Notes: generated by a model not told the origin, from the sequence alone. Counted from the first letter of the stretch, positions 31,553-43,636 are shown. The stretch: 64,000 nt of DNA from a bacterium (GCA_046757025.1 JBHHXN010000005.1:25989-89988); one strand, 5' to 3'. Numbers and translations are program-made.

Positions 31553-31625
31553 ATCGCATAGAATTAATTTCAATAAAACCTCATTAGCTTTTATTTATTA
31601 AACAGATAGCATAATTGGTTAAAAG

Positions 31626-31641
31626 TGGTACAAGCTTTGCT
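31626..31641 (+). promoter_or_regulatory. sigma-54 (-24/-12) promoter
   Basis: TGGTACAAGCTTTGCT, exact GG-N10-GC spacing. Confidence 0.7.
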
Positions 31642-31710
31642 TTGAAGCTCCACGGAGAAATCATAATGATCTTCATTGAAAAATCACCAAGACTCATGAG
31701 GGCTGAAATC

Positions 31711-32676
31711 ATGAAAACACGGATGCTTGCTTGCCTGATTTTAGGCGTAGTTATGGTTTCGCCGCTATTTAGCAGCGAAACGGCTGTCATCATCAAAGTG
31801 ACGGGTTTGTATGGAATCATCAACAAAGGTACCAACCAGGGACTGCAAGAAGGCCAAGTATTTTATGTCAAAAGAGCAGTGTCTTCGCAATGGCAGGATG
31901 TGGCTAAAGTGAAAGTGATTCGAACCACCGCCAACCGAGCCGCTGTGGAACAAATCACCCATTCCAGAAAATTTGTCATTCAGAAAGGGGACAAGTTGTT
32001 TGCCAACAAGGAGGTTGTTTTCACGCCGCCGGTTGTGCCGAAGAAAGCGGCGGCGCCACCGACGCCGGTGGTAAACAAGCGGCTAGGAAAAAGGCCTGCA
32101 GTCGAACCCATTACCGAACCAGTTAATAAACAGAATGATGTGTCCCTTCCGGAGCCGGCTTATACTTATCAACGCAAAAGCTATCTACGGGAACCGTGGG
32201 TGAGTCTCAATCTGGGTTCCATTTTTCCGAGTGGTGAATTAGGGAATGCCATTTCACCCAGCATAAAATTTGGCGCCAGCTACATGGTGTCTACCGGCAA
32301 CAACTTAAATCTGGGAATTGAAATCAATCGAACTTTTTTTAGCGGTAGCGAATTAGGTAACAGTAATTTGACCGGCAGCAGCATCGAGTCGTCCTCGATA
32401 TTGGAAGCCATCGTGGTGTTTCAAAAATACTTTGGAAATCACTTTTTTATCGAAACCGGCGGCGGCATTTACCGACCCAAAATCAAAACCATTTCGGTGG
32501 ATAAGATCGAATCTAGTTTTTCATCTTCCAATTTTGGCTTGTTTGGCGGAACCGGATTTTTTATCCCCACCAGTAAATATGCCGGATTTACTTTGAAAGG
32601 CAGAATGCACAACTACTTTGATGAAACCACCAAGCAGTATTTCGGTTTGAGTGGCGGTTTTCGTTTTAAAATGTAA
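31711..32676 (+). CDS. Exported protein: FlgT-C-like beta domain, Pro-rich linker, C-terminal outer-membrane beta-barrel
   Basis: Signal peptide; INKG..QGL..G..F.V...VA.VKV...IQKGD; PPVVPKKAAAPPTP linker; amphipathic strands ending GGFRFKM. Confidence 0.6.
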   Translation: MKTRMLACLILGVVMVSPLFSSETAVIIKVTGLYGIINKGTNQGLQEGQVFYVKRAVSSQWQDVAKVKVIRTTANRAAVEQITHSRKFVIQKGDKLFANKEVVFTPPVVPKKAAAPPTPVVNKRLGKRPAVEPITEPVNKQNDVSLPEPAYTYQRKSYLREPWVSLNLGSIFPSGELGNAISPSIKFGASYMVSTGNNLNLGIEINRTFFSGSELGNSNLTGSSIESSSILEAIVVFQKYFGNHFFIETGGGIYRPKIKTISVDKIESSFSSSNFGLFGGTGFFIPTSKYAGFTLKGRMHNYFDETTKQYFGLSGGFRFKM

Positions 32677-33857: not shown

Positions 33858-33886
33858 TTGACTAAATGTTAAAAATTCCTTATAAT
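33858..33886 (+). promoter_or_regulatory. sigma-70 promoter of nuo operon
   Basis: TTGACT-17 bp-TATAAT. Confidence 0.85.
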
Positions 33887-33944: not shown

Positions 33945-34373
33945 ATGCTATTTAATTTTGCCGCGATCTTAGTGTTTTTGCTTTTTGGTGCATTGTTTGT
34001 CGGCATAAATTTTCTTTTGTCCAGATTACTACAAACACGAAATCCTTTTCCCAGTAAAATCAGTACTTACGAATGTGGAGAGATTCCCGTAGGTGGCGGC
34101 TGGCTGCAATTCAATATCCGTTTTTACGTCATTGCGCTGATCTTTTTGATATTTGAAGTTGAAATCGTGTTTCTTTTTCCTTGGGCCGTGGTGTTTAAAA
34201 AGCTGGGCGCCTTTGCTTTTGTCGAAATGATGATTTTCATTGTGATATTGCTGGTGGGCCTAGCTTATGCCTGGGTGAAAGGCGATCTGGAATGGGACAC
34301 GCCCACGAGCGTTCCCGCTGCTGAGCACCAAAATTTGATCACCAAATCCCTTACCAAAGAACTGGCTTCTTAA
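33945..34373 (+). CDS. nuoA: Complex I membrane subunit A
   Basis: [39 protein letters not shown]. Confidence 0.96.
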
Positions 34374-34405
34374 ATCATGACTGGAAAGGAATCGAAAAAA
34401 AATTA

Positions 34406-35461
34406 ATGAGTGAATTTATTTCGGAGTTAGCCAGCAGTCAATCCTTTGTAAGTAGTCTTCCTGAATTATTAGTAATTACTATTTTTTTGCTTTTATCCGC
34501 ACTTGTTTTTGCAGTGCTGGCGGCGCTGTTGGCGCTATTTGGCGTTTATTTAGAGCGCAAAATTTCAGCGCACATGCAGGATCGCCTTGGGCCCATGTAT
34601 GTGGGCAGCTGGCATGGTTGGGCGCAAACATTAGCGGATGCCGTAAAACTGCTCATCAAAGAAGATATCGTGCCCGAGCGTGCGGATAAAAAGCTGCATC
34701 TGCTGGCGCCTTTTCTGGTTTTCGCGGCAACCCTGGCAGCGTTTGCCGTACTTCCGTTTGGAAGAAGGCTTATCGTGAGCGATTTGAATATCGGCATTTT
34801 ATACGTCATCGCGATTTCGTCGTTCGTGGTGGTAGGCATCATTCTGGCGGGTTGGGCTTCCAACAACAAATGGTCTTTATTGGGCAGTATGCGCTCCGCC
34901 GCGCAGGTGGTGAGTTTTGAGATCCCAGCGGCGCTGTCAGTGCTGGTGGTGGTGATGGCCGTGGGTACTATGAACCTAGGCAGCATCGTAGTGTTTCAGG
35001 ATGGGGGGATTCACAAATGGCTGGTCTGGAAGTTTTTTCCTTTTAATTTCCTCGCTTTTTTAATTTATTTCGTAGCATCCCTGGCGGAAGTCAACCGAGC
35101 GCCTTTTGACATCCCGGAAGCCGAATCAGAAATTGTGGCGGGATTTCACACGGAATACAGCGGCATGAAATGGGCCATGTTTTTTCTGTCTGAATATGCC
35201 AACATGTTTTTAGTGGGCGTCATCGGTGCCACGCTTTTTCTCGGCGGCTGGTCCAGTCCGTTTGGCGATTTCATGAATGGCGGAGGATTTTCCGTTTTCT
35301 GGATTTGTCTAAAAGCCTTCGGGCTGATTTTTCTGCAGATGTGGCTGCGCTGGACCTTACCGCGTGTGCGGGTGGACCAGCTCATGTACACCTGCTGGAA
35401 AGTGTTGACCCCGTTTGCTTTTTTGGCTATGATCGGTGTGGGAATTTACATGATTATATGA
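34406..35461 (+). CDS. nuoH: Complex I membrane subunit H
   Basis: [59 protein letters not shown]. Confidence 0.97.
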
Positions 35462-35465
35462 GACT

Positions 35466-35963
35466 ATGAATCTATTTGATATACTTTTTTACGCATTTGC
35501 TGCACTGGCTGTGTCCTCGGCAGCGATTATGGTGTTTTCGAAAAACGTGGTCTATTCTGCGGTGGGCCTGCTGTTTACGTTTGCCGGCGTTGCGGGGATC
35601 TATGTACTGTTAGCCGCCGATTTTTTGGCCATCGTGCAGATACTGGTATATGTGGGCGGCATTTTAATGCTGATTTTGTTTGGCATCATGCTTTCCCAGA
35701 GAATCACCAATGTTGAATTTCGAACCGGTGCGTTGCAGCTTTTTCCAGCGGTGCTGGTGGTCGGCGGGGTGCTGGCCATTTTGATCAGAATGATCTACAA
35801 AACGCCCTGGAAAACCGTACAAAATATCGATTTTAATCCATCCACCGAGGCCATCGGATTTTTGCTGATGACCGATTATTTGATTCCGTTTGAAATCGTT
35901 TCCGTGCTGTTGTTGGCTGCTTTGATCGGCGCCGCTTTCATTGCCAGAAAGGAGCAAAGTTGA
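35466..35963 (+). CDS. nuoJ: Complex I membrane subunit J
   Basis: N.VYSA, ADFLAIVQILVYVGGI..L.LFGIML, YLIPFEIVSVLLL. Confidence 0.95.
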   Translation: MNLFDILFYAFAALAVSSAAIMVFSKNVVYSAVGLLFTFAGVAGIYVLLAADFLAIVQILVYVGGILMLILFGIMLSQRITNVEFRTGALQLFPAVLVVGGVLAILIRMIYKTPWKTVQNIDFNPSTEAIGFLLMTDYLIPFEIVSVLLLAALIGAAFIARKEQS

Positions 35964-36271
35964 TGACCATTACTTTAACTCATTATCTGACTTTAAGCGC
36001 CGTTCTCTTTTCGCTGGGTCTTTTGTGTGTCATCACGAAAAAGAATGCCATCGCCGTGCTCATGGGAGTGGAATTGATTTTAAATGCCGCCAATATCAAC
36101 TTCGTGGCCTTTGCGCGATTCGTGGACACCGACTTGGACGGACAGGTGTTTGCTATTTTCGTGATCGTCACCGCAGCGGCAGCGGCGGCGGTTGCTCTGG
36201 CCATCGTTTTGAATTTATATGAACGACTAAAATCCATCGATCTGGATGAAGCGGATTCGTTAGCCCGGTAG
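35963..36271 (+). CDS. nuoK: Complex I membrane subunit K
   Basis: KNAI..LMGVELILNAANINFVAF, GQVFAIFVI; TGATG overlap with nuoJ. Confidence 0.95.
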   Translation: MTITLTHYLTLSAVLFSLGLLCVITKKNAIAVLMGVELILNAANINFVAFARFVDTDLDGQVFAIFVIVTAAAAAAVALAIVLNLYERLKSIDLDEADSLAR

Positions 36272-36309
36272 GATACGGAGTTGAATTCACTGAAAGAGTA
36301 AAATAGTCT

Positions 36310-38298
36310 ATGATTACCAACGCCATTTTGATTTTACTTTTGCCGATATGTGCATTTACCATTCAAATTTTTCTTGGTAAAAGATTGCCGCGAAAAGGGG
36401 ACTGGCTGCCGACCGGCGCCATGTTTATCGCGTTCTTTTTAGCGGTTCCCATTTTTTGGCAAGCCCTTTCGCAGTATGATCCCGACTTCAAAATTACCCG
36501 GACCTGGAATTGGATCGATTTTGGCGCCGTGTCGGTTTCGTTCGGAATCCACATCGACAATTTGACCGCGATCATGTTGATCGTGGTGACTCTGATCAGC
36601 GCGCTCATTCATCTCTATTCCATCGGCTACATGCACGGCGATGCGCGCTACAGCCGGTATTTTGCTTATTTATCGCTGTTTTCTTTCTCCATGCTAGGCC
36701 TGATTTTAGTCGATAACTTTTTCGGCATTTACATTTTTTGGGAATTGGTGGGATTATCGTCCTACCTGCTCATCGGATTCTGGTTTGAAAAAGATTCGGC
36801 TGCCAACGCCGGCAAGAAGGCTTTTATCACCAATCGTATAGGGGATGTGGGGATGTTCGCCGGCATTCTGATTATATTTACCTCTCTGGGCGTGTTAAAT
36901 TTTGAAGAAGTTTTCAAAAACGTGGCCGACGGTCATCTCAGTGGCGGATTGTTGACCGCCGCCGGCATTTTGATCTTTTGCGGCGCCGTGGGCAAATCAG
37001 CGCAATTTCCACTGCACGTTTGGCTGCCCGACGCCATGGAAGGTCCGACGCCGGTCAGCGCGTTGATCCACGCCGCAACCATGGTTGCGGCCGGAGTGTA
37101 TCTGGTGGGCCGCGTTTTCGTATTTTTCACCGCCGATGCGCTGCTGGTGATCGCCTACATCGGCACCATCACCGCTTTTATGGCAGCTACTATTGCTATC
37201 GTTCAAAAAGATATCAAACGAGTTTTGGCTTATTCTACCATAAGCCAGCTGGGGTATATGATGGTCGGCCTGGGTACGGGAGGGTATACCGCAGGCCTTT
37301 TCCATCTCACCACACATGCATTTTTCAAAGCCCTGCTGTTTCTGGGCTCGGGCAGCGTCATTCATGCTGTGCACACCCAGGACATGAGTGAAATGGGTGG
37401 GTTGCGCAAAAAAATGCCCATCACGTTTGTGACATTTTTAATCGCAACTTTAGCGATTTCCGGGGTGCCTCCTTTGTCCGGTTTCTGGAGCAAAGACGCC
37501 ATTTTAGCGGCATCCCTTGAGTTTGGCATGACGCACCCGCAGCATTTAATCATTTTTATCGTTATGTTGTTATCTGCAGGCATTACCGCTTTTTACATGT
37601 TTCGATTGGTTTATCTAACTTTTACCGGCAGTGCAAGAGTAAAAGAAAAATTTGATCATGCCCACGAATCGCCGCTGGTGATGACCCTCCCGTTGTCGAT
37701 TCTGGCGCTCTTTTCAGTGGGTACCATCTGGTGGGGATGGTATGCGCATTTGATGCCTACACCCGAATTAACTTCGTATGCCAGTGTGGTCGGACACGCG
37801 GTGGAATCACACGCAGGCGCACACGAATCCTCCGCACATCTGGCCCACAACATCGCCCTGGTGCTTTCTGTGGTGGTAGCGGGGTTGGGAATCCTGATTG
37901 CCACTGCCACCTACTACTGGAAAAAAATCTCCGCAGAAGCCTGGGGCAGGCGATTGCAGCCAATTTACAAATTATTGTGGAATAAATATTATTTCGATGA
38001 GCTGTATGGCGCCACCGTCATCAAAGCCACCTTGCTTTTTAGTAAATTCTCAGCGCTGTTTGATCTGCGATTCATCGACGGCTTCGTCAACGGTACGGCT
38101 CGATGGACCGCGAAGTTATCTTTTGCTGAGGGCAAATTTGATTTGAAAATCATCGATGGCCTGGTCAATCTCGTGGGTAGAATCGTGCAATATTTTGGGG
38201 CGCAATTACGGGAAATTCAAACCGGCAAAGTCCAGAGTTATATTTTGATGGCGTTAGCTGGCATCGTTGCGCTTTATATCATTCAGCTTTTACCTTAA
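36310..38298 (+). CDS. nuoL: Complex I membrane subunit L with lengthened transverse helix
   Basis: YSIGYM, WELVG..SYLLIGFW, GKSAQFPLHVWLPDAMEGPTPVSALIHAATMV, THAFFKALLFL, QTG; duplicated FD..IDG.VN unit. Confidence 0.97.
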   Translation: MITNAILILLLPICAFTIQIFLGKRLPRKGDWLPTGAMFIAFFLAVPIFWQALSQYDPDFKITRTWNWIDFGAVSVSFGIHIDNLTAIMLIVVTLISALIHLYSIGYMHGDARYSRYFAYLSLFSFSMLGLILVDNFFGIYIFWELVGLSSYLLIGFWFEKDSAANAGKKAFITNRIGDVGMFAGILIIFTSLGVLNFEEVFKNVADGHLSGGLLTAAGILIFCGAVGKSAQFPLHVWLPDAMEGPTPVSALIHAATMVAAGVYLVGRVFVFFTADALLVIAYIGTITAFMAATIAIVQKDIKRVLAYSTISQLGYMMVGLGTGGYTAGLFHLTTHAFFKALLFLGSGSVIHAVHTQDMSEMGGLRKKMPITFVTFLIATLAISGVPPLSGFWSKDAILAASLEFGMTHPQHLIIFIVMLLSAGITAFYMFRLVYLTFTGSARVKEKFDHAHESPLVMTLPLSILALFSVGTIWWGWYAHLMPTPELTSYASVVGHAVESHAGAHESSAHLAHNIALVLSVVVAGLGILIATATYYWKKISAEAWGRRLQPIYKLLWNKYYFDELYGATVIKATLLFSKFSALFDLRFIDGFVNGTARWTAKLSFAEGKFDLKIIDGLVNLVGRIVQYFGAQLREIQTGKVQSYILMALAGIVALYIIQLLP

Positions 38299-38345
38299 TT
38301 TGAACGTACAAAGTCGAACCCCGATTTTTCCCAATTGTTTAGAGG
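38288..38345. repeat. Truncated left end of element family B overlapping the nuoL stop codon
   Basis: TTTTACCTTAATTTGAACGTACAAAGTCGAACCCCGATTTTTCCCAATTGTTTAG aligns with 9348-9406. Confidence 0.6.
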
Positions 38346-38382
38346 GGCCAAATAAATGGGAGGTAGAAAGGATAAATAAAAG

Positions 38383-39957
38383 ATGGAAAATATGATTTTA
38401 ACTCTGATAACATTTCTTCCAATTGTAGGCGTTCTGTTCATTCTATTTGTACCCAAAGATAATAAACAGGTTGTCCGGATCATTGCGGCGGTGTTTACCG
38501 GACTGCAGTTGGTGCTCGCTATCTGGATTTTCATGAACTTCGATCGCAGCACCGCAAATTTCCAGTTTACTGAACAGTACAAATGGATACCATCTTTTAA
38601 TATCGAATACTTTATGGGCATCGACGGGCTGAGCGTGCCCATGGTTTTGCTCACGGCTTTTTTGTCGTTCATTTGCATTTTTGCCTCCTGGGGCATTGAG
38701 AAAGGCGTCAAAGGCTATTTTGCCATGTTTTTGCTGCTGGATACCGGCATGATGGGGGTTTTCTGCGCTCTGGATTTCTTTTTGTTTTACATTTTCTGGG
38801 AAGTCATGCTGCTGCCCATGTACTTTCTCATCGGTATCTGGGGTAGCCCTTCCCGCAGGGATGAAGACGGTATGGTACGCGGCGGTCCGTATGCTGCGAT
38901 TAAATTCTTTCTTTACACCCTGTTCGGCAGCGTACTGATGTTGTTAGCCATGCTGGTGTTCTATTTCAACGTTAAGGACCCGGTATCCGGCGGCCACACT
39001 TTCAATATGCTGCACATCATGAATCAGGCCAACCACGGCGGCGTGCTTACAAATTTCGATATGAGATTGGTTCTGTATGTGGCCCTGTTCATCGGTTTTG
39101 CTATTAAGGTACCGGTTTTTCCCTTTCACACGTGGCTGCCGGACGCGCACGTGGAAGCGCCCACGGCCATCAGCGTAATATTAGCCGGGGTACTTTTAAA
39201 AATGGGTACGTACGGCATGCTGCGCATCAGTTTTCCCATGCTGCCAGATGCCATGAAATATGAATATTTTGCTTACGGTATGGCCATACTGGGGCTCATC
39301 AACATCCTCTACGGCGCATTTTGTGCCATGGCTCAAAAAGACCTGAAAAAGTTGGTGGCCTATTCGAGTATCAGTCACATGGGCATTGTGCTTTTAGGCA
39401 TGTCCGGTTTAACCTCGCTGGGCATGAACGGCGCCGTGATGCAGATGTTCAACCACGGTACCGGCACCGCCATGCTCTTTCTTCTGGTGGGCGTGATTTA
39501 CGACCGAGCACACCACCGACAGATCGATGGTTTTGGAGGGCTGGCTGTTCGTATGCCCATTTACGCAGCCGTGGTCAGTTTGGCCTTTTTTGCAGGGCTG
39601 GGTCTGCCGGGACTTTCAAGCTTTATCAGCGAAGTCTTTTCGTTTCTGGGTGCGTTTGGCTCCACCATGTTTAATTTGAAAGCCATCACGGTGATTTCCA
39701 CCATCGGAATTATATTGACCGCAGGCTACTTTCTGTGGACGTTTCAGCGCATGTTTTTAGGCGAATTGAATCCTAAATACGCAGACTTGCCAGAAATAAA
39801 CGGGCGGGAATTATTTACGCTTATTCCAATCGGAATCCTTATCATTATTTTGGGCGTGTATCCGGCGCCGTTGTTGAGTTTGATTAAAGTATCCTTGAAC
39901 AATTTAGTGGACATTGTGGTGACAACGGGAACGCCAACATTGTTGGGTTTACAATAA
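38383..39957 (+). CDS. nuoM: Complex I membrane subunit M
   Basis: GIDGLS, FWE.ML.PMYFLIG.WG, KVPVFPFHTWLPDAHVEAPT, AYSSISHMG. Confidence 0.97.
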   Translation: MENMILTLITFLPIVGVLFILFVPKDNKQVVRIIAAVFTGLQLVLAIWIFMNFDRSTANFQFTEQYKWIPSFNIEYFMGIDGLSVPMVLLTAFLSFICIFASWGIEKGVKGYFAMFLLLDTGMMGVFCALDFFLFYIFWEVMLLPMYFLIGIWGSPSRRDEDGMVRGGPYAAIKFFLYTLFGSVLMLLAMLVFYFNVKDPVSGGHTFNMLHIMNQANHGGVLTNFDMRLVLYVALFIGFAIKVPVFPFHTWLPDAHVEAPTAISVILAGVLLKMGTYGMLRISFPMLPDAMKYEYFAYGMAILGLINILYGAFCAMAQKDLKKLVAYSSISHMGIVLLGMSGLTSLGMNGAVMQMFNHGTGTAMLFLLVGVIYDRAHHRQIDGFGGLAVRMPIYAAVVSLAFFAGLGLPGLSSFISEVFSFLGAFGSTMFNLKAITVISTIGIILTAGYFLWTFQRMFLGELNPKYADLPEINGRELFTLIPIGILIIILGVYPAPLLSLIKVSLNNLVDIVVTTGTPTLLGLQ

Positions 39958-39968
39958 CGATAAAAAAA

Positions 39969-41486
39969 ATGGATTATTCAGCGACTCTACAAAATAACCT
40001 CAACAGCTTAAGTTATTTTATTCCGGAGCTTATTCTTACCGGAGTAATCATTACCATCATCATCGCAGATTTGGCTCTGCAAAAAAAATACAAGCCCTGG
40101 ACTTCCATCATCGCTCTGGCGGGACTGGTTATAGCTTTTATTGCGGTGCTTGGGCAGTATAAATTGGGAAGCCGAACGATTTTCAACGATATGATGGTGG
40201 TGGATCCGTTTGCGCTGTTTTTCAAGCTGCTGTTTCTAGGCTCAGCGCTGCTGGCGGTGTTTCTTTCCATCGGCTCCATTGAATTGTCCGGTCGCCCCAT
40301 CGGGGAATATTTCACCTTGCTGGTCGCCACAACTCTGGGGATGTTTTTTATGGCCTCCGCTACCAATCTGTTGACCATTTTTATATCAATTGAAATGGTC
40401 AGCGTCACCTCATTTATTCTGGCGAATTATTTGAAAACCCGCCGACGGTCCAGTGAAGCGGGATTAAAATACGCCATTTATGGTGCCTTCTCTTCTGGTT
40501 TGATGTTGTACGGTATCTCCTTGATTTACGGCATCACCGGCACGCTGAACATAAATGAAATCGCCAGTGTGCTGAACGCGACCAATCCGGATAAGTTGCT
40601 CCTATTCGTTTCCGTGCTGCTGATCATGGCCGGTTTTGGTTACAAAATTGCTTCGGTGCCTTTCCACTTCTGGGCGCCGGACGTGTATGAAGGCGCGCCC
40701 ACGCCCATTACCGCGTTTTTCTCAGTGGGGCCAAAAGCGGCTGGCTTTGCGTTGTTGATCCGGTTTTTTAACGTAGCATTGGTCTCGCATGGCACAAATG
40801 GCGAAACCTCAGTCTGGCATGCGCTCAATGGACTGGATTGGCCACAGCTTTTAGCGGTCATTGCAGCGGCAACCATGACTCTGGGAAATTTGACCGCCAT
40901 CGTTCAAAACAATATTAAACGATTATTAGCTTATTCCAGTATTGCCCATGCCGGCTACGCACTCATGGGCGTGGTGGTGCTTTCCGAGCAAGGCATCCAT
41001 GCCACCATGTTTTACCTGGTGGTATATTATGTGATGAACATCGGCGCCTTTTTAGTGGTCATCGTAAGCCAAGAAATCGTGGGCAGCGAACGTATTGATG
41101 ATTACAAAGGTCTGGTCTGGCGTGCACCCATTCCCGCCATCGCCATGGGTGTTTTCCTGTTTTCGCTAACCGGTTTGCCGCCAACGGCGGGATTCATCGG
41201 TAAGTTTTATTTGTTTGCCGCCTTGGTCAAAGGCGGCCCGGCGTTTTATTGGTTAGCGGTTGTGGGCATCCTCAATAGCGTGATTTCGCTCTATTATTAT
41301 GCTCGAATTTTGCGAGCCATGTTTATCGATAAAAAGGAAGAAAAAGCGGTGAAAACTTTAACCGTCTCTCCATATTATGTGGCCTTGCTTGCGGTATTAG
41401 TTATTCCAACCATTTTACTTGGTGTTTACTGGGCGCCGTTAGCGAATTTTGCAAATTATTCATTTGAGTTTTTCAAAGCGTTCTAA
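39969..41486 (+). CDS. nuoN: Complex I membrane subunit N
   Basis: PELIL, SSEAGLKY, KIASVPFHFWAPDVYEGAPTP, KRLLAYSSIAHAGY, GLPPTAGFIGKF. Confidence 0.97.
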   Translation: MDYSATLQNNLNSLSYFIPELILTGVIITIIIADLALQKKYKPWTSIIALAGLVIAFIAVLGQYKLGSRTIFNDMMVVDPFALFFKLLFLGSALLAVFLSIGSIELSGRPIGEYFTLLVATTLGMFFMASATNLLTIFISIEMVSVTSFILANYLKTRRRSSEAGLKYAIYGAFSSGLMLYGISLIYGITGTLNINEIASVLNATNPDKLLLFVSVLLIMAGFGYKIASVPFHFWAPDVYEGAPTPITAFFSVGPKAAGFALLIRFFNVALVSHGTNGETSVWHALNGLDWPQLLAVIAAATMTLGNLTAIVQNNIKRLLAYSSIAHAGYALMGVVVLSEQGIHATMFYLVVYYVMNIGAFLVVIVSQEIVGSERIDDYKGLVWRAPIPAIAMGVFLFSLTGLPPTAGFIGKFYLFAALVKGGPAFYWLAVVGILNSVISLYYYARILRAMFIDKKEEKAVKTLTVSPYYVALLAVLVIPTILLGVYWAPLANFANYSFEFFKAF

Positions 41487-41587
41487 CTTGCCGTTGGAAC
41501 ATTGCTTTATGTTTAGACGTTTTTTGCATAAAGAGGGTACCTGACTTTATCCCTTCAGTTGTCAATCATTAACCTGCCGTAGTCATT

Positions 41588-43075
41588 ATGAAGAATCACA
41601 TATTGCGTTCATATAGAAATGTCATTTTAAGCTTCCTGGCCATTACCTCGGGTCTCATATTATTGGCCGGTATTAGTTCCAAAAAAACCGCTCATCGAAT
41701 CGACGTACGTATTTTTACGCCCACCAAAAAGGATTCTGTTCGTTTAAAGGTGTTCAATATCAAAATCAAAGGTAAAACCACCGCCGGCTTTGTGGACGCG
41801 GAAGTTTCAGAATCGGAATTAGAGAAGATCAGAAGAAGCGGATTTCAGGTGGCGTTGATTTCGGAGCTAAAAAAGAATACCACTATTCCGCCCTCGTACC
41901 GACCTTTAGAAGAGATCGAGCGAAAATTGCGGTACTATCAGTCAAAATATTCTGAGATTTATTCTCTGGAGAAAATAGGAAAATCCACTGCACAGAAACG
42001 TCCAATATGGGGTGTGAAAATATCCGATAACGCCGAGGTACGCGAAGATGAGCCCCGGATTTTATTTGTAGGTGTGCACCACGCCAGAGAGCCCATCGGC
42101 GCCAACATTTGCCTTGAAATAATTCGCGCGTTATGCAGCAATTATGGTAGAGATAAAAGAATTACCAGCTGGGTTAATTCCCTGGAAATTTGGCTGGTAC
42201 CGGTGGTGAATCCAGACGGTTACCAGTACGTGATGAACAGCGACTTGTCGTTTCCCTGGTGGCGAAAAAATTTGCGCGATAATGATAGAAACGGTAAATT
42301 CAATCCCCTTTACGATGGTGTGGATCTCAATCGCAATTATGAATACAACTGGAACGAAGGCGGTGACGGCAAACCGAGCAGTTGGTTTTATCGCGGCTCC
42401 AGACCGTTTTCCGAATCGGAAACGCGGGCCATTCAAGAGCTGGCCATGCGAGAAAACTTTTTGTTCGGGGTTTCTTACCACAGTTACGGCGAATCTATTT
42501 TATTCCCCTGGGGCAATTACCATCGACCACCAGATATCGAGTTGATCGTGGAGGTTGCCAGTCAAATGGCATCCCGAATCAAAAAGGAATCCGGGCACGG
42601 ACATTATGCCATTTTGCCTTTAAATGGCCGGGTGGGACAAAGCTCCATCTGGATGTACGCAGAATTGAACATCATGGATTATATTGTGGAAGTGGGAACC
42701 GAGTATTTCCCAGCAGAAAAAAATATTCCAGATATTTTAAAAGAAAATTTAAAAGGGGCCTTTTATTTATTTGATCGGGCTTTCGGCTCCGGCATCACAG
42801 GGCATGTATTTGACATGAACACGTTACAGCCACTTCTGGCGGAAGTTGAAGTCAAACAATTTGCCGCCCGATACGTTAAACCCAGGAAATCGGATGCGCA
42901 TTTCGGCGGTTTTTACCGGCTTTTGAAACCTGGAACTTTTACGCTAGAAATAAATAGCAATGGTTACAAAACCAAAATTATCAAAAATGTTCGGGTTAAA
43001 AATGGTGAAATGACTCAAATCGAAATCGGAATGCATAAAATTAAAAAAAATATCACAAACGGTATTTCAAATTAA
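41588..43075 (+). CDS. M14 family zinc carboxypeptidase with C-terminal carboxypeptidase regulatory-like domain
   Basis: HHARE, NPDG, WRKN, GVDLNRN, SYHSY motifs. Confidence 0.92.
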   Translation: MKNHILRSYRNVILSFLAITSGLILLAGISSKKTAHRIDVRIFTPTKKDSVRLKVFNIKIKGKTTAGFVDAEVSESELEKIRRSGFQVALISELKKNTTIPPSYRPLEEIERKLRYYQSKYSEIYSLEKIGKSTAQKRPIWGVKISDNAEVREDEPRILFVGVHHAREPIGANICLEIIRALCSNYGRDKRITSWVNSLEIWLVPVVNPDGYQYVMNSDLSFPWWRKNLRDNDRNGKFNPLYDGVDLNRNYEYNWNEGGDGKPSSWFYRGSRPFSESETRAIQELAMRENFLFGVSYHSYGESILFPWGNYHRPPDIELIVEVASQMASRIKKESGHGHYAILPLNGRVGQSSIWMYAELNIMDYIVEVGTEYFPAEKNIPDILKENLKGAFYLFDRAFGSGITGHVFDMNTLQPLLAEVEVKQFAARYVKPRKSDAHFGGFYRLLKPGTFTLEINSNGYKTKIIKNVRVKNGEMTQIEIGMHKIKKNITNGISN

Positions 43076-43090
43076 TGTTCCATATTTAAC

Positions 43091-43636
43091 ATGAGAAAAA
43101 ATATTTTTGCTGGTATTGTTCTCGGTGTCGTAATCGTTTGTTTTTGTATCGCCTTTGCCATTGGGGATTTTTCAAGAGGTCAAATGATTTACGTCAAATC
43201 CACCATTGAAAATCTGCGGGATGCGCCCAACGGCGATAAATTGGGGACGCTGGACAAAGGGGCAGAAATGATTGTGCTGGAAGACGCATCCAAATGGGTA
43301 AAAGTCAGGGTAGAGGGTTGGATTTGGAAAGACTCGGTAACCGATAGCAAACTGGGATTAGCCGGCGATAAGTACCGCGCGATGCAAATTATCGTCAAAG
43401 AGCTTTCCACCGCAGAGGACATTCTCAAGAGATTGAAAGCAGGGGAGGATTTCAAAGAGCTTGCCACGGCCAAATCCATCGGACCAGCGGCCAAACGCGG
43501 AGGAGATTTAGGATTTTTCAGCAAAGGCGATTTTAAACCCGAAATAGAAAACGCTATTTTGAATTTGAAGCCCGGCGAAATCAGCGACATCATCAAAAGC
43601 AACATTGGCTATCACATTTTTAAACGAATTCAATAG
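43091..43636 (+). CDS. Exported SH3-like + PpiC (parvulin) domain protein
   Basis: ENLR.APNG...WVKV..EGWIW then GEDF.ELA..S......GGDLGFF...L.PGEISD....GYHI. Confidence 0.8.
   Translation: MRKNIFAGIVLGVVIVCFCIAFAIGDFSRGQMIYVKSTIENLRDAPNGDKLGTLDKGAEMIVLEDASKWVKVRVEGWIWKDSVTDSKLGLAGDKYRAMQIIVKELSTAEDILKRLKAGEDFKELATAKSIGPAAKRGGDLGFFSKGDFKPEIENAILNLKPGEISDIIKSNIGYHIFKRIQ

Follow-up and report, generated by a model that had tools for sequence, protein, structure and literature searches.

The window analysed here is a 64,000-nucleotide stretch of bacterial DNA (GCA_046757025.1 JBHHXN010000005.1:25989-89988). It encodes membrane subunits of a complex I in the order A-H-J-K-L-M-N (33945-41486). The features of the operon are these.

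33858..33886, plus strand: sigma-70-like promoter candidate upstream of nuoA, TTGACT-17-TATAAT, with 11/12 consensus matches (pattern only)
33945..34373, plus strand: nuoA (gene call)
34406..35461, plus strand: nuoH (gene call)
35466..35963, plus strand: nuoJ (gene call)
35960..36271, plus strand: nuoK (gene call)
36310..38298, plus strand: nuoL, 662 aa, of the long-helix clade (gene call, tree)
37987..38223, plus strand: lateral helix HL, residues 560-638, predicted unbroken (AlphaFold2)
38059..38136, plus strand: HL repeat 1 (F-D585-x4-D590-G-x-V-N), putative NuoM docking site
38137..38214, plus strand: HL repeat 2 (F-D611-x4-D616-G-x-V-N), putative docking site of a second NuoM copy
38218..38289, plus strand: QTG motif and the last transmembrane helix, TM16 (residues 641-660)
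38299..38382, plus strand: nuoL-nuoM spacer, 84 nt, with Shine-Dalgarno-like AAGGA at 38368-38372
38383..39957, plus strand: nuoM, the only copy, 524 aa (gene call)
39969..41486, plus strand: nuoN (gene call)
41480..41500, plus strand: terminator-like hairpin at the nuoN end (pattern only; the count of such hairpins is not above that in shuffles)

NuoM has E140 (GluTM5), K174 (the TM6 lysine), K242 (LysTM7) and E417 (GluTM12), all invariant in the alignment, which is the charged-residue set of a canonical NuoM. In its cytoplasmic loop after TM5 there is a 9-residue charged insertion (38833-38890, residues about 151-170) that is also found in the relative L033 but not in the clade at large, and in Nitrospirota M2 the equivalent place holds a longer one. 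The nuoL-nuoM spacer contains a 7-codon ORF (38356-38379) that has a Shine-Dalgarno-like site of its own, shares nuoM's reading frame and encloses nuoM's ribosome site; this ORF may be there by chance, as most relatives' spacers are too short for it. Upstream of the operon is a 353-residue ORF (31615-32676) with a signal-like start, a C-terminal barrel-like pattern and no match in NCBIfam or Pfam, and 3' of nuoN on the same strand are an M14 zinc carboxypeptidase (41588-43075) and an SH3-plus-parvulin protein (43091-43636).

The feature of interest is HL, which joins the cytoplasmic sides of the pumps and is followed by the last NuoL helix, located at NuoN in solved complexes (PMC7419157, PMC3046159). 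An earlier note on this DNA had proposed that a tandem duplication lengthens it by 26 residues, and the measurements bear this out. The first copy, FDLRFIDGFVN, begins at 38059 (residue 584) and the second, FDLKIIDGLVN, at 38137 (residue 610), an offset of 78 nt or 26 residues; counted inclusively, 75 residues run from D563 (in YFD) to Q637 (in QTG). The same D-to-Q span is 51 in the genome's second NuoL and in 20/20 short paralogues fetched from relatives, 49 in cyanobacterial NdhF, and 50-51 in proteobacterial NuoL, with one of 46. Set against these shorter forms, the window NuoL carries a net gain, and its alignment to one true 2M NuoL of Nitrospirota is gap-free over HL. Canonical complex I chains (NuoL/ND5/NdhF, e.g., 6hum_F, 8qby_L, 3rko) share the fold and the NuoM charged residues with the window, but the solved chains that were matched have one repeat where the window NuoL has two: the long-tail profile matched 7 PDB chains, each with one repeat, and 0/7 cover both. 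The two 78-nt units are identical at only 36/78 bases, most of them within the first third, which indicates that the duplication is old. The duplicated unit is thus real and old, and it is also widespread.

Only one nuoM accompanies this helix, sitting between nuoL and nuoN, and here the gene calls agree with the earlier note. Genome-wide there are 6 PF00361 genes, all of them L, M or N, making up two L-M-N sets. The other set belongs to a second complex I, encoded as A-B-CD-E-F-G-H-I on contig C39, J-K-L-M on C44 and N on C61. A search for an orphan nuoM or mrpD as the source of a fourth pump found none by PF00361 in this assembly of 5.96 Mb (374 contigs, 94.8% complete), and MrpA/MrpD-like genes of an Mrp antiporter or of the five-pump Complex_I_3 type are absent from it, the six PF00361 genes being L, M and N. 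The second complex's J-K-L-M (C44:4920-9642) has no nuoN after M and its nuoN stands alone at C61:3605-5101; most relatives fetched keep L-M-N of that complex together. Just upstream of its nuoJ is a 533-residue gene, presumably a sodium/proton antiporter.

The operon had been described as having no B, C, D or I and as missing its Q-module. The first part is true within the window; the second does not stand, as nuoB-C-I-D forms a separate cluster on contig C106 (17763-14723) and its NuoD groups with the NuoD of intact long-helix operons (FastTree, support 93), so that the operon is split. Close orthologues of this NuoD occur in families f1, f2 and f10, which are the families having a long NuoL, and in 7/12 relatives fetched nuoB-C-I-D comes immediately after H-I of the second complex. 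The C106 cluster likely completes this membrane arm. The genome holds the whole 11-subunit gene set, with A, H and J-N in the window and B, C, I and D on C106. There is one set of E-F-G in the genome, clustered in relatives with B-C-I-D, and it could be shared by both complexes. After nuoB-C-I-D (C106:12626-14629, minus strand) comes a membrane protein of 667 residues that combines a NarI-like part with 4Fe-4S domains, also present there in 10/12 relatives fetched and partly in L032. We take it to resemble FadF or ETF:quinone oxidoreductases, and it could be tied to the quinone pool of the complex.

One of the nearest described systems is the 11-subunit complex I (nuoABCDHIJKLMN) of Chlorobiaceae, Ignavibacteria and related groups, whose NuoL, NuoM and NuoD lie in the window's clade and which has the 75-residue helix with one nuoM. 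The window differs from it by the split operon with B-C-I-D beside the second complex's soluble genes, by the iron-sulfur membrane oxidoreductase gene after B-C-I-D, and by the 9-residue loop insertion in NuoM. Among named relatives, the NuoL closest to that of the window (77% identity over the core) belongs to L033, a candidate division KSB1 bacterium. Among 18 long operons from relatives, D-to-Q is 75 in 17 and masked by N in one, and a second nuoM between L and N, as expected from a recent loss here, is found in 0/18. Their widest L-M or M-N gaps (G037) hold soluble-looking genes and no pumps. Unrelated genes lie between nuoL, nuoM and nuoN at L194:2928-3797, L194:5629-6321 and L045:6894-8954; we take these to be nuclease-like or defence-like.

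Surveyed more widely, a long NuoL with a single nuoM turns up across many bacterial groups. A named-genome scan gave 80 loci, 47 of them with a long helix, from KSB1, Ignavibacteria (including Melioribacter roseus), Bacteroidota, Chlorobiaceae, Poribacteria, Planctomycetes, Deferrimicrobiaceae, Eiseniibacteriota, Zixiibacteriota and Marinimicrobia. There is one nuoM in 38/38 long-helix loci showing L to N (in one locus as two pieces), and the usual order is A-B-C-D-H-I-J-K-L-M-N. Chlorobiaceae have the long helix in 41/41 genomes searched, and 18/41 have just three PF00361 genes, which means that a homologous fourth subunit supplied in trans, one of the options the earlier note had put forward, is not the general answer; with two L-M-N sets in the present genome it is not needed here either. 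Unrooted FastTree trees place the window NuoL and NuoM in a multi-phylum clade that is made up of 36 single-M rows and free of 2M proteins. The window complex is an ordinary member of a large 11-subunit complex I clade, with a split operon.

It is accordingly not the undescribed system that had been proposed, and the mismatch between helix and gene count is itself in print. Complex_I_1 and Complex_I_2 of 'Ca. Manganitrophaceae' (Yu et al. 2022, PMC9040806) have canonical genes and a 26-residue HL insertion, as here. Its authors describe the mismatch in one family, leave the choice between complexes prepared to take on extra subunits and complexes in transition, and do not propose reuse of NuoM. 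Two copies of one NuoM per complex were not found in the literature searched, Chadwick et al. 2018 lying outside its scope. What is known in print thus appears to be the mismatch, in the one family Manganitrophaceae, with reuse of NuoM not found there. Two Nitrospirota loci in our set, L143 and L144, may be of the Manganitrophaceae kind: their NuoL core groups with short-helix NuoL, while their long helix and NuoM belong to the clade of the window, as though the two had been transferred as a unit.

The other point of comparison is 2M complex I (Chadwick, Hemp, Fischer and Orphan 2018, ISME J 12:2668, as relayed in PMC9040806, PMC7419157, PMC8004040 and PMC7117926). Its HL insertion is equal in place and length (75) to that of the window NuoL, nuoE/F is absent beside the membrane genes in both, and several Chloroflexota 2M operons are A-H-J-K-L-M-M-N with B, C, D and I apart, like the window (see also PMC7117926). 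It differs in having two nuoM against the window's one, and in that one repeat drifts where both are alike here. Of the marks of a 2M enzyme, then, the window has the ~26-residue HL insertion and lacks the two nuoM between nuoL and nuoN. Descent from a described 2M clade is not borne out by the unrooted FastTree trees, which put the NuoL core and NuoM in a separate single-M clade, apart from the 2M subunits of Nitrospira and Chloroflexota.

True 2M operons were collected as a reference. In Nitrospirota a full-length match was found in 15/81 genomes, 13 of them L-M-M-N and 2 L-M-N, with D-to-Q of 75 in 13/13 of the L-M-M-N loci. A sample of 20 loci from the Chloroflexota full-length matches gave 10 L-M-M-N, 8 L-M-N and 2 cut off, the L-M-M-N loci having D-to-Q of 75-79 where measurable. 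A metagenome set of 80 loci was picked mostly on the core pattern and not on the helix; 37 were scorable, and 43/80 were left out for incomplete L-to-N context or an unparsable tail. Long helices in this set come with two nuoM in 19 loci and with one in 7, three-repeat helices with one nuoM in 3, and short helices with one nuoM in 8 and with two in 0. Two nuoM always came with a long helix in the cases seen, and a long helix without a second nuoM occurs. The second M subunits of Nitrospirota and Chloroflexota cluster in a clade of their own (support 100). GluTM5 and GluTM12 are present in either M subunit of a true 2M pair, which means that such arms tolerate an M-M charge pair. In the unrooted FastTree trees, single-M proteins with a long helix are found next to each 2M group, a placement that would fit a history in which the long helix came first.

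The question is then what the second HL unit holds in a single-M enzyme. Judged by its spacing, F-D-x4-D-G is the putative NuoM contact. Both aspartates of both repeats are invariant in 38/38 single-M proteins of length 75 from many phyla; a 114/114 invariance among representatives is left out of account, since selection by profile biases it. In the same 38 proteins the two docking windows have mean pairwise identities of 0.59 and 0.60, against 0.29 and 0.35 for the linkers, and proline occurs in the HL repeat region of 0/38, the window HL itself having none from the first repeat to QTG. Scored on a short-helix profile, single-M repeats 1 and 2 reach 20.0 and 22.0, while true 2M proteins of length 75 (n = 16) score 18.5 and 3.4. 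With lenient anchoring, both repeats are intact in 41/44 and 7/7 single-M proteins (48/51 in total), as against 3/22 and 0/19 true 2M proteins (3/41 in total). The repeat lost varies, being repeat 1 instead of repeat 2 in some 2M groups. Identical partners should keep identical sites and different partners should let the sites diverge, and the pattern across these proteins looks as expected from that. Counted by phylogeny, there are 4 independent pairs for this contrast, of which 1-3 go in the expected direction and none in the opposite one (median p 0.5, not significant). Concerted change of the two repeats within a protein was not detected, identity being 0.55 within proteins and 0.53 across taxa, with 203/2000 permutations as high as observed.

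The register of the two repeats is also regular. The amphipathic period peaks at 96-98 degrees, at which 26 residues make 7 whole turns, about 39 angstroms, and the repeats face one way. A first AlphaFold2 model had pLDDT under 50 over HL and was set aside. The model from a diverse alignment has a single unbroken helix over 560-638, with pLDDT of about 65-79 for the most part and near 51 at the end; single-chain AlphaFold2 without partners tends to over-extend helices.

A separate indication comes from ribosome sites, since bacterial subunits are made in proportion to stoichiometry according to PMC7195860. In this lineage nuoM has the strongest Shine-Dalgarno site of L, M and N in 18/19 long operons, with medians of -2.4 (L), -5.8 (M) and -0.2 (N) kcal/mol. 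In the short-helix paralogous operons of largely the same genomes it is strongest in 4/17, with medians of -0.4, -0.2 and -2.8 kcal/mol. The window values are -2.4 for nuoL, -4.7 for nuoM, 0 for nuoN and -7.2 kcal/mol for nuoK, scored like the others against an assumed anti-SD motif. Outside this lineage the signal is weaker: in other phyla nuoM is strongest in 23/43 single-M long, 4/10 short and 7/23 2M operons, and in the metagenome set in 5/7 single-M long, 2/6 short, 2/19 2M and 1/3 three-repeat operons. The sets may overlap by a KSB1 row, kin in them are non-independent, and the heuristic start codons include a few that are visibly wrong. Many of these groups make little use of Shine-Dalgarno sites. 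Within this lineage nuoM ribosome-site strength is one inherited trait, a hint that points to doubled NuoM. The L-M spacer was tried as a further sign of doubling and discarded as non-discriminating, a spacer of <=5 nt occurring in 0/43 single-M and 0/23 true 2M operons.

The reading that these sequence comparisons favour, at slightly better than even, is that one NuoM is built in twice, giving an arm L-M-M-N in which each copy is held by one HL repeat. It was among the possibilities that the earlier note raised, and repeat conservation, helical register and the ribosome site make it the best supported of them. Each F-D-x4-D-G-x-V-N unit would dock on the cytoplasmic face of one NuoM, and one 26-residue unit of about 39 angstroms and 7 turns would span one subunit. 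With QTG and TM16 still ending at NuoN, a straight HL would leave one slot between M and N, which a second copy of the same NuoM would fill. On this reading three pump genes would yield a four-pump ('2M-type') complex, HL serving as the ruler, and its arm would move about five protons per two electrons. Such a stoichiometry would suit a low-potential donor such as ferredoxin or reverse electron flow from menaquinol. The literature searched holds no structure, cross-link or subunit count for such a complex, and the proteomics listings searched for Chlorobiaceae and Dehalococcoides contain no usable data set.

The main rival to L-M-M-N, which we consider unlikely while giving it real weight, is an arm of three pumps, L-M-N, in which NuoM is held by one repeat while the other is spare and either doubles back or bulges out along the surface of the membrane. 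The spare would be a tolerated or bracing extra on an ordinary four-proton, 11-subunit complex I. The case for it comes chiefly from longer and altered helices. In the best 150 representatives D-to-Q rises in steps of ~26, with 75-76 in 123, 101-104 in 8 parsed and one more by eye, and then 127, 133 and 153 (2); the tail-parsing regular expression failed on about 12/150. The NuoL proteins with 3, 4 and 5 repeats have D-to-Q of 101-104, 127 and 153 (L228, L229, L236; P0142, P0161, P0171). In P0142 and P0171 there are near-identical recent copies, and the three-repeat operons L228, L229 and L236 have one nuoM each. If extra repeats are tolerated in those proteins, a tolerated spare unit is possible in the window NuoL as well, and the phylogenetic contrast above, not being significant, leaves room for it. 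The linker between repeats also accepts large changes: the Bacteroidota NuoL proteins L077 (6753-9008), L079 (3-1391) and P0244 have about 65 extra residues there with two hydrophobic segments (D-to-Q = 140), and L081 has a proline-rich linker instead. The flanking aspartates are kept in all four, so these variants fit either the four-pump or the spare-unit view. Against a spare unit, it should decay, yet the four aspartates are invariant in 38/38 and the two windows are equally conserved; its length is fixed at the 2M value, and the repeats are in register with no proline or break.

An improbable alternative is that the slot is real and is filled by something else, such as the second complex's NuoM, a second NuoN or an unrelated membrane protein. 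A second nuoM is indeed available in this genome and in most of its family, and the soluble modules of both complexes are clustered in relatives. But the Chlorobiaceae with L, M and N only must do without one, the duplicated unit copies the segment over NuoM with QTG retained, and the genes in the wide L-M or M-N gaps of relatives include no pumps. The nuoN ribosome site is the weakest of the three in this lineage.

Slightly more doubtful still is an arm of three pumps in which repeat 2 lies on the NuoN surface and TM16 reaches one subunit on, to NuoK/J/A or to a neighbouring complex in a dimer. L, M and N have equivalent lysine and histidine positions (PMC3046159), so the NuoN surface is related; the QTG-x-x-Q-x-Y end is identical to that of short forms, though, suggesting the same partner, and the same length serves the added M in true 2M enzymes. 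The least probable account is a relic of a lost second nuoM in a lineage leaving a 2M state: the single-M L163 nests among Chloroflexota 2M NuoL with one repeat drifted, so that such losses may occur, but for this lineage recent loss is largely refuted by a single-M clade without 2M members, by the lack of any relative with two nuoM at this place, and by the drift of one repeat in true 2M proteins and of none here.

Returning to L-M-M-N, it can be extended to the proposal that HL acts as a molecular ruler, its count of 26-residue repeats deciding how many NuoM copies stand between NuoL and NuoN. We put this forward tentatively, as somewhat more apt to be wrong than right. At one pump per repeat the forms with 3-5 repeats would have 5-7 pumps, and the longest is hard to accept; either HL is a ruler and arms of five or more pumps exist, or NuoL can accommodate surplus repeats. 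For Manganitrophaceae, PMC9040806 describes a five-pump cluster. If the ruler holds, green sulfur bacteria, Ignavibacteria, KSB1, Poribacteria and some Planctomycetes and Chloroflexota would have a four-pump complex I, a three-repeat helix would mean five pumps, and the two-gene 2M complexes would go back to a homo-pair, one slot of which a second nuoM later took.

Genome-based models read the proton stoichiometry of complex I off gene counts. If NuoM is not doubled, what is described here is a common and harmless helix duplication. If it is, the pump of many anaerobes and phototrophs runs in a higher gear than its annotation implies, and this would bear on how such organisms reach ferredoxin-level potentials. 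An alternation has been proposed for NuoM's glutamate (PMC7419157, PMC9271201), and an even arm L-M-M-N would break it. A doubled NuoM would also offer a natural way to ask whether the effects of antiporter modules are additive in coupling, and the doubling can be looked for in cultured Chlorobiaceae, where the long helix is universal among the genomes searched.
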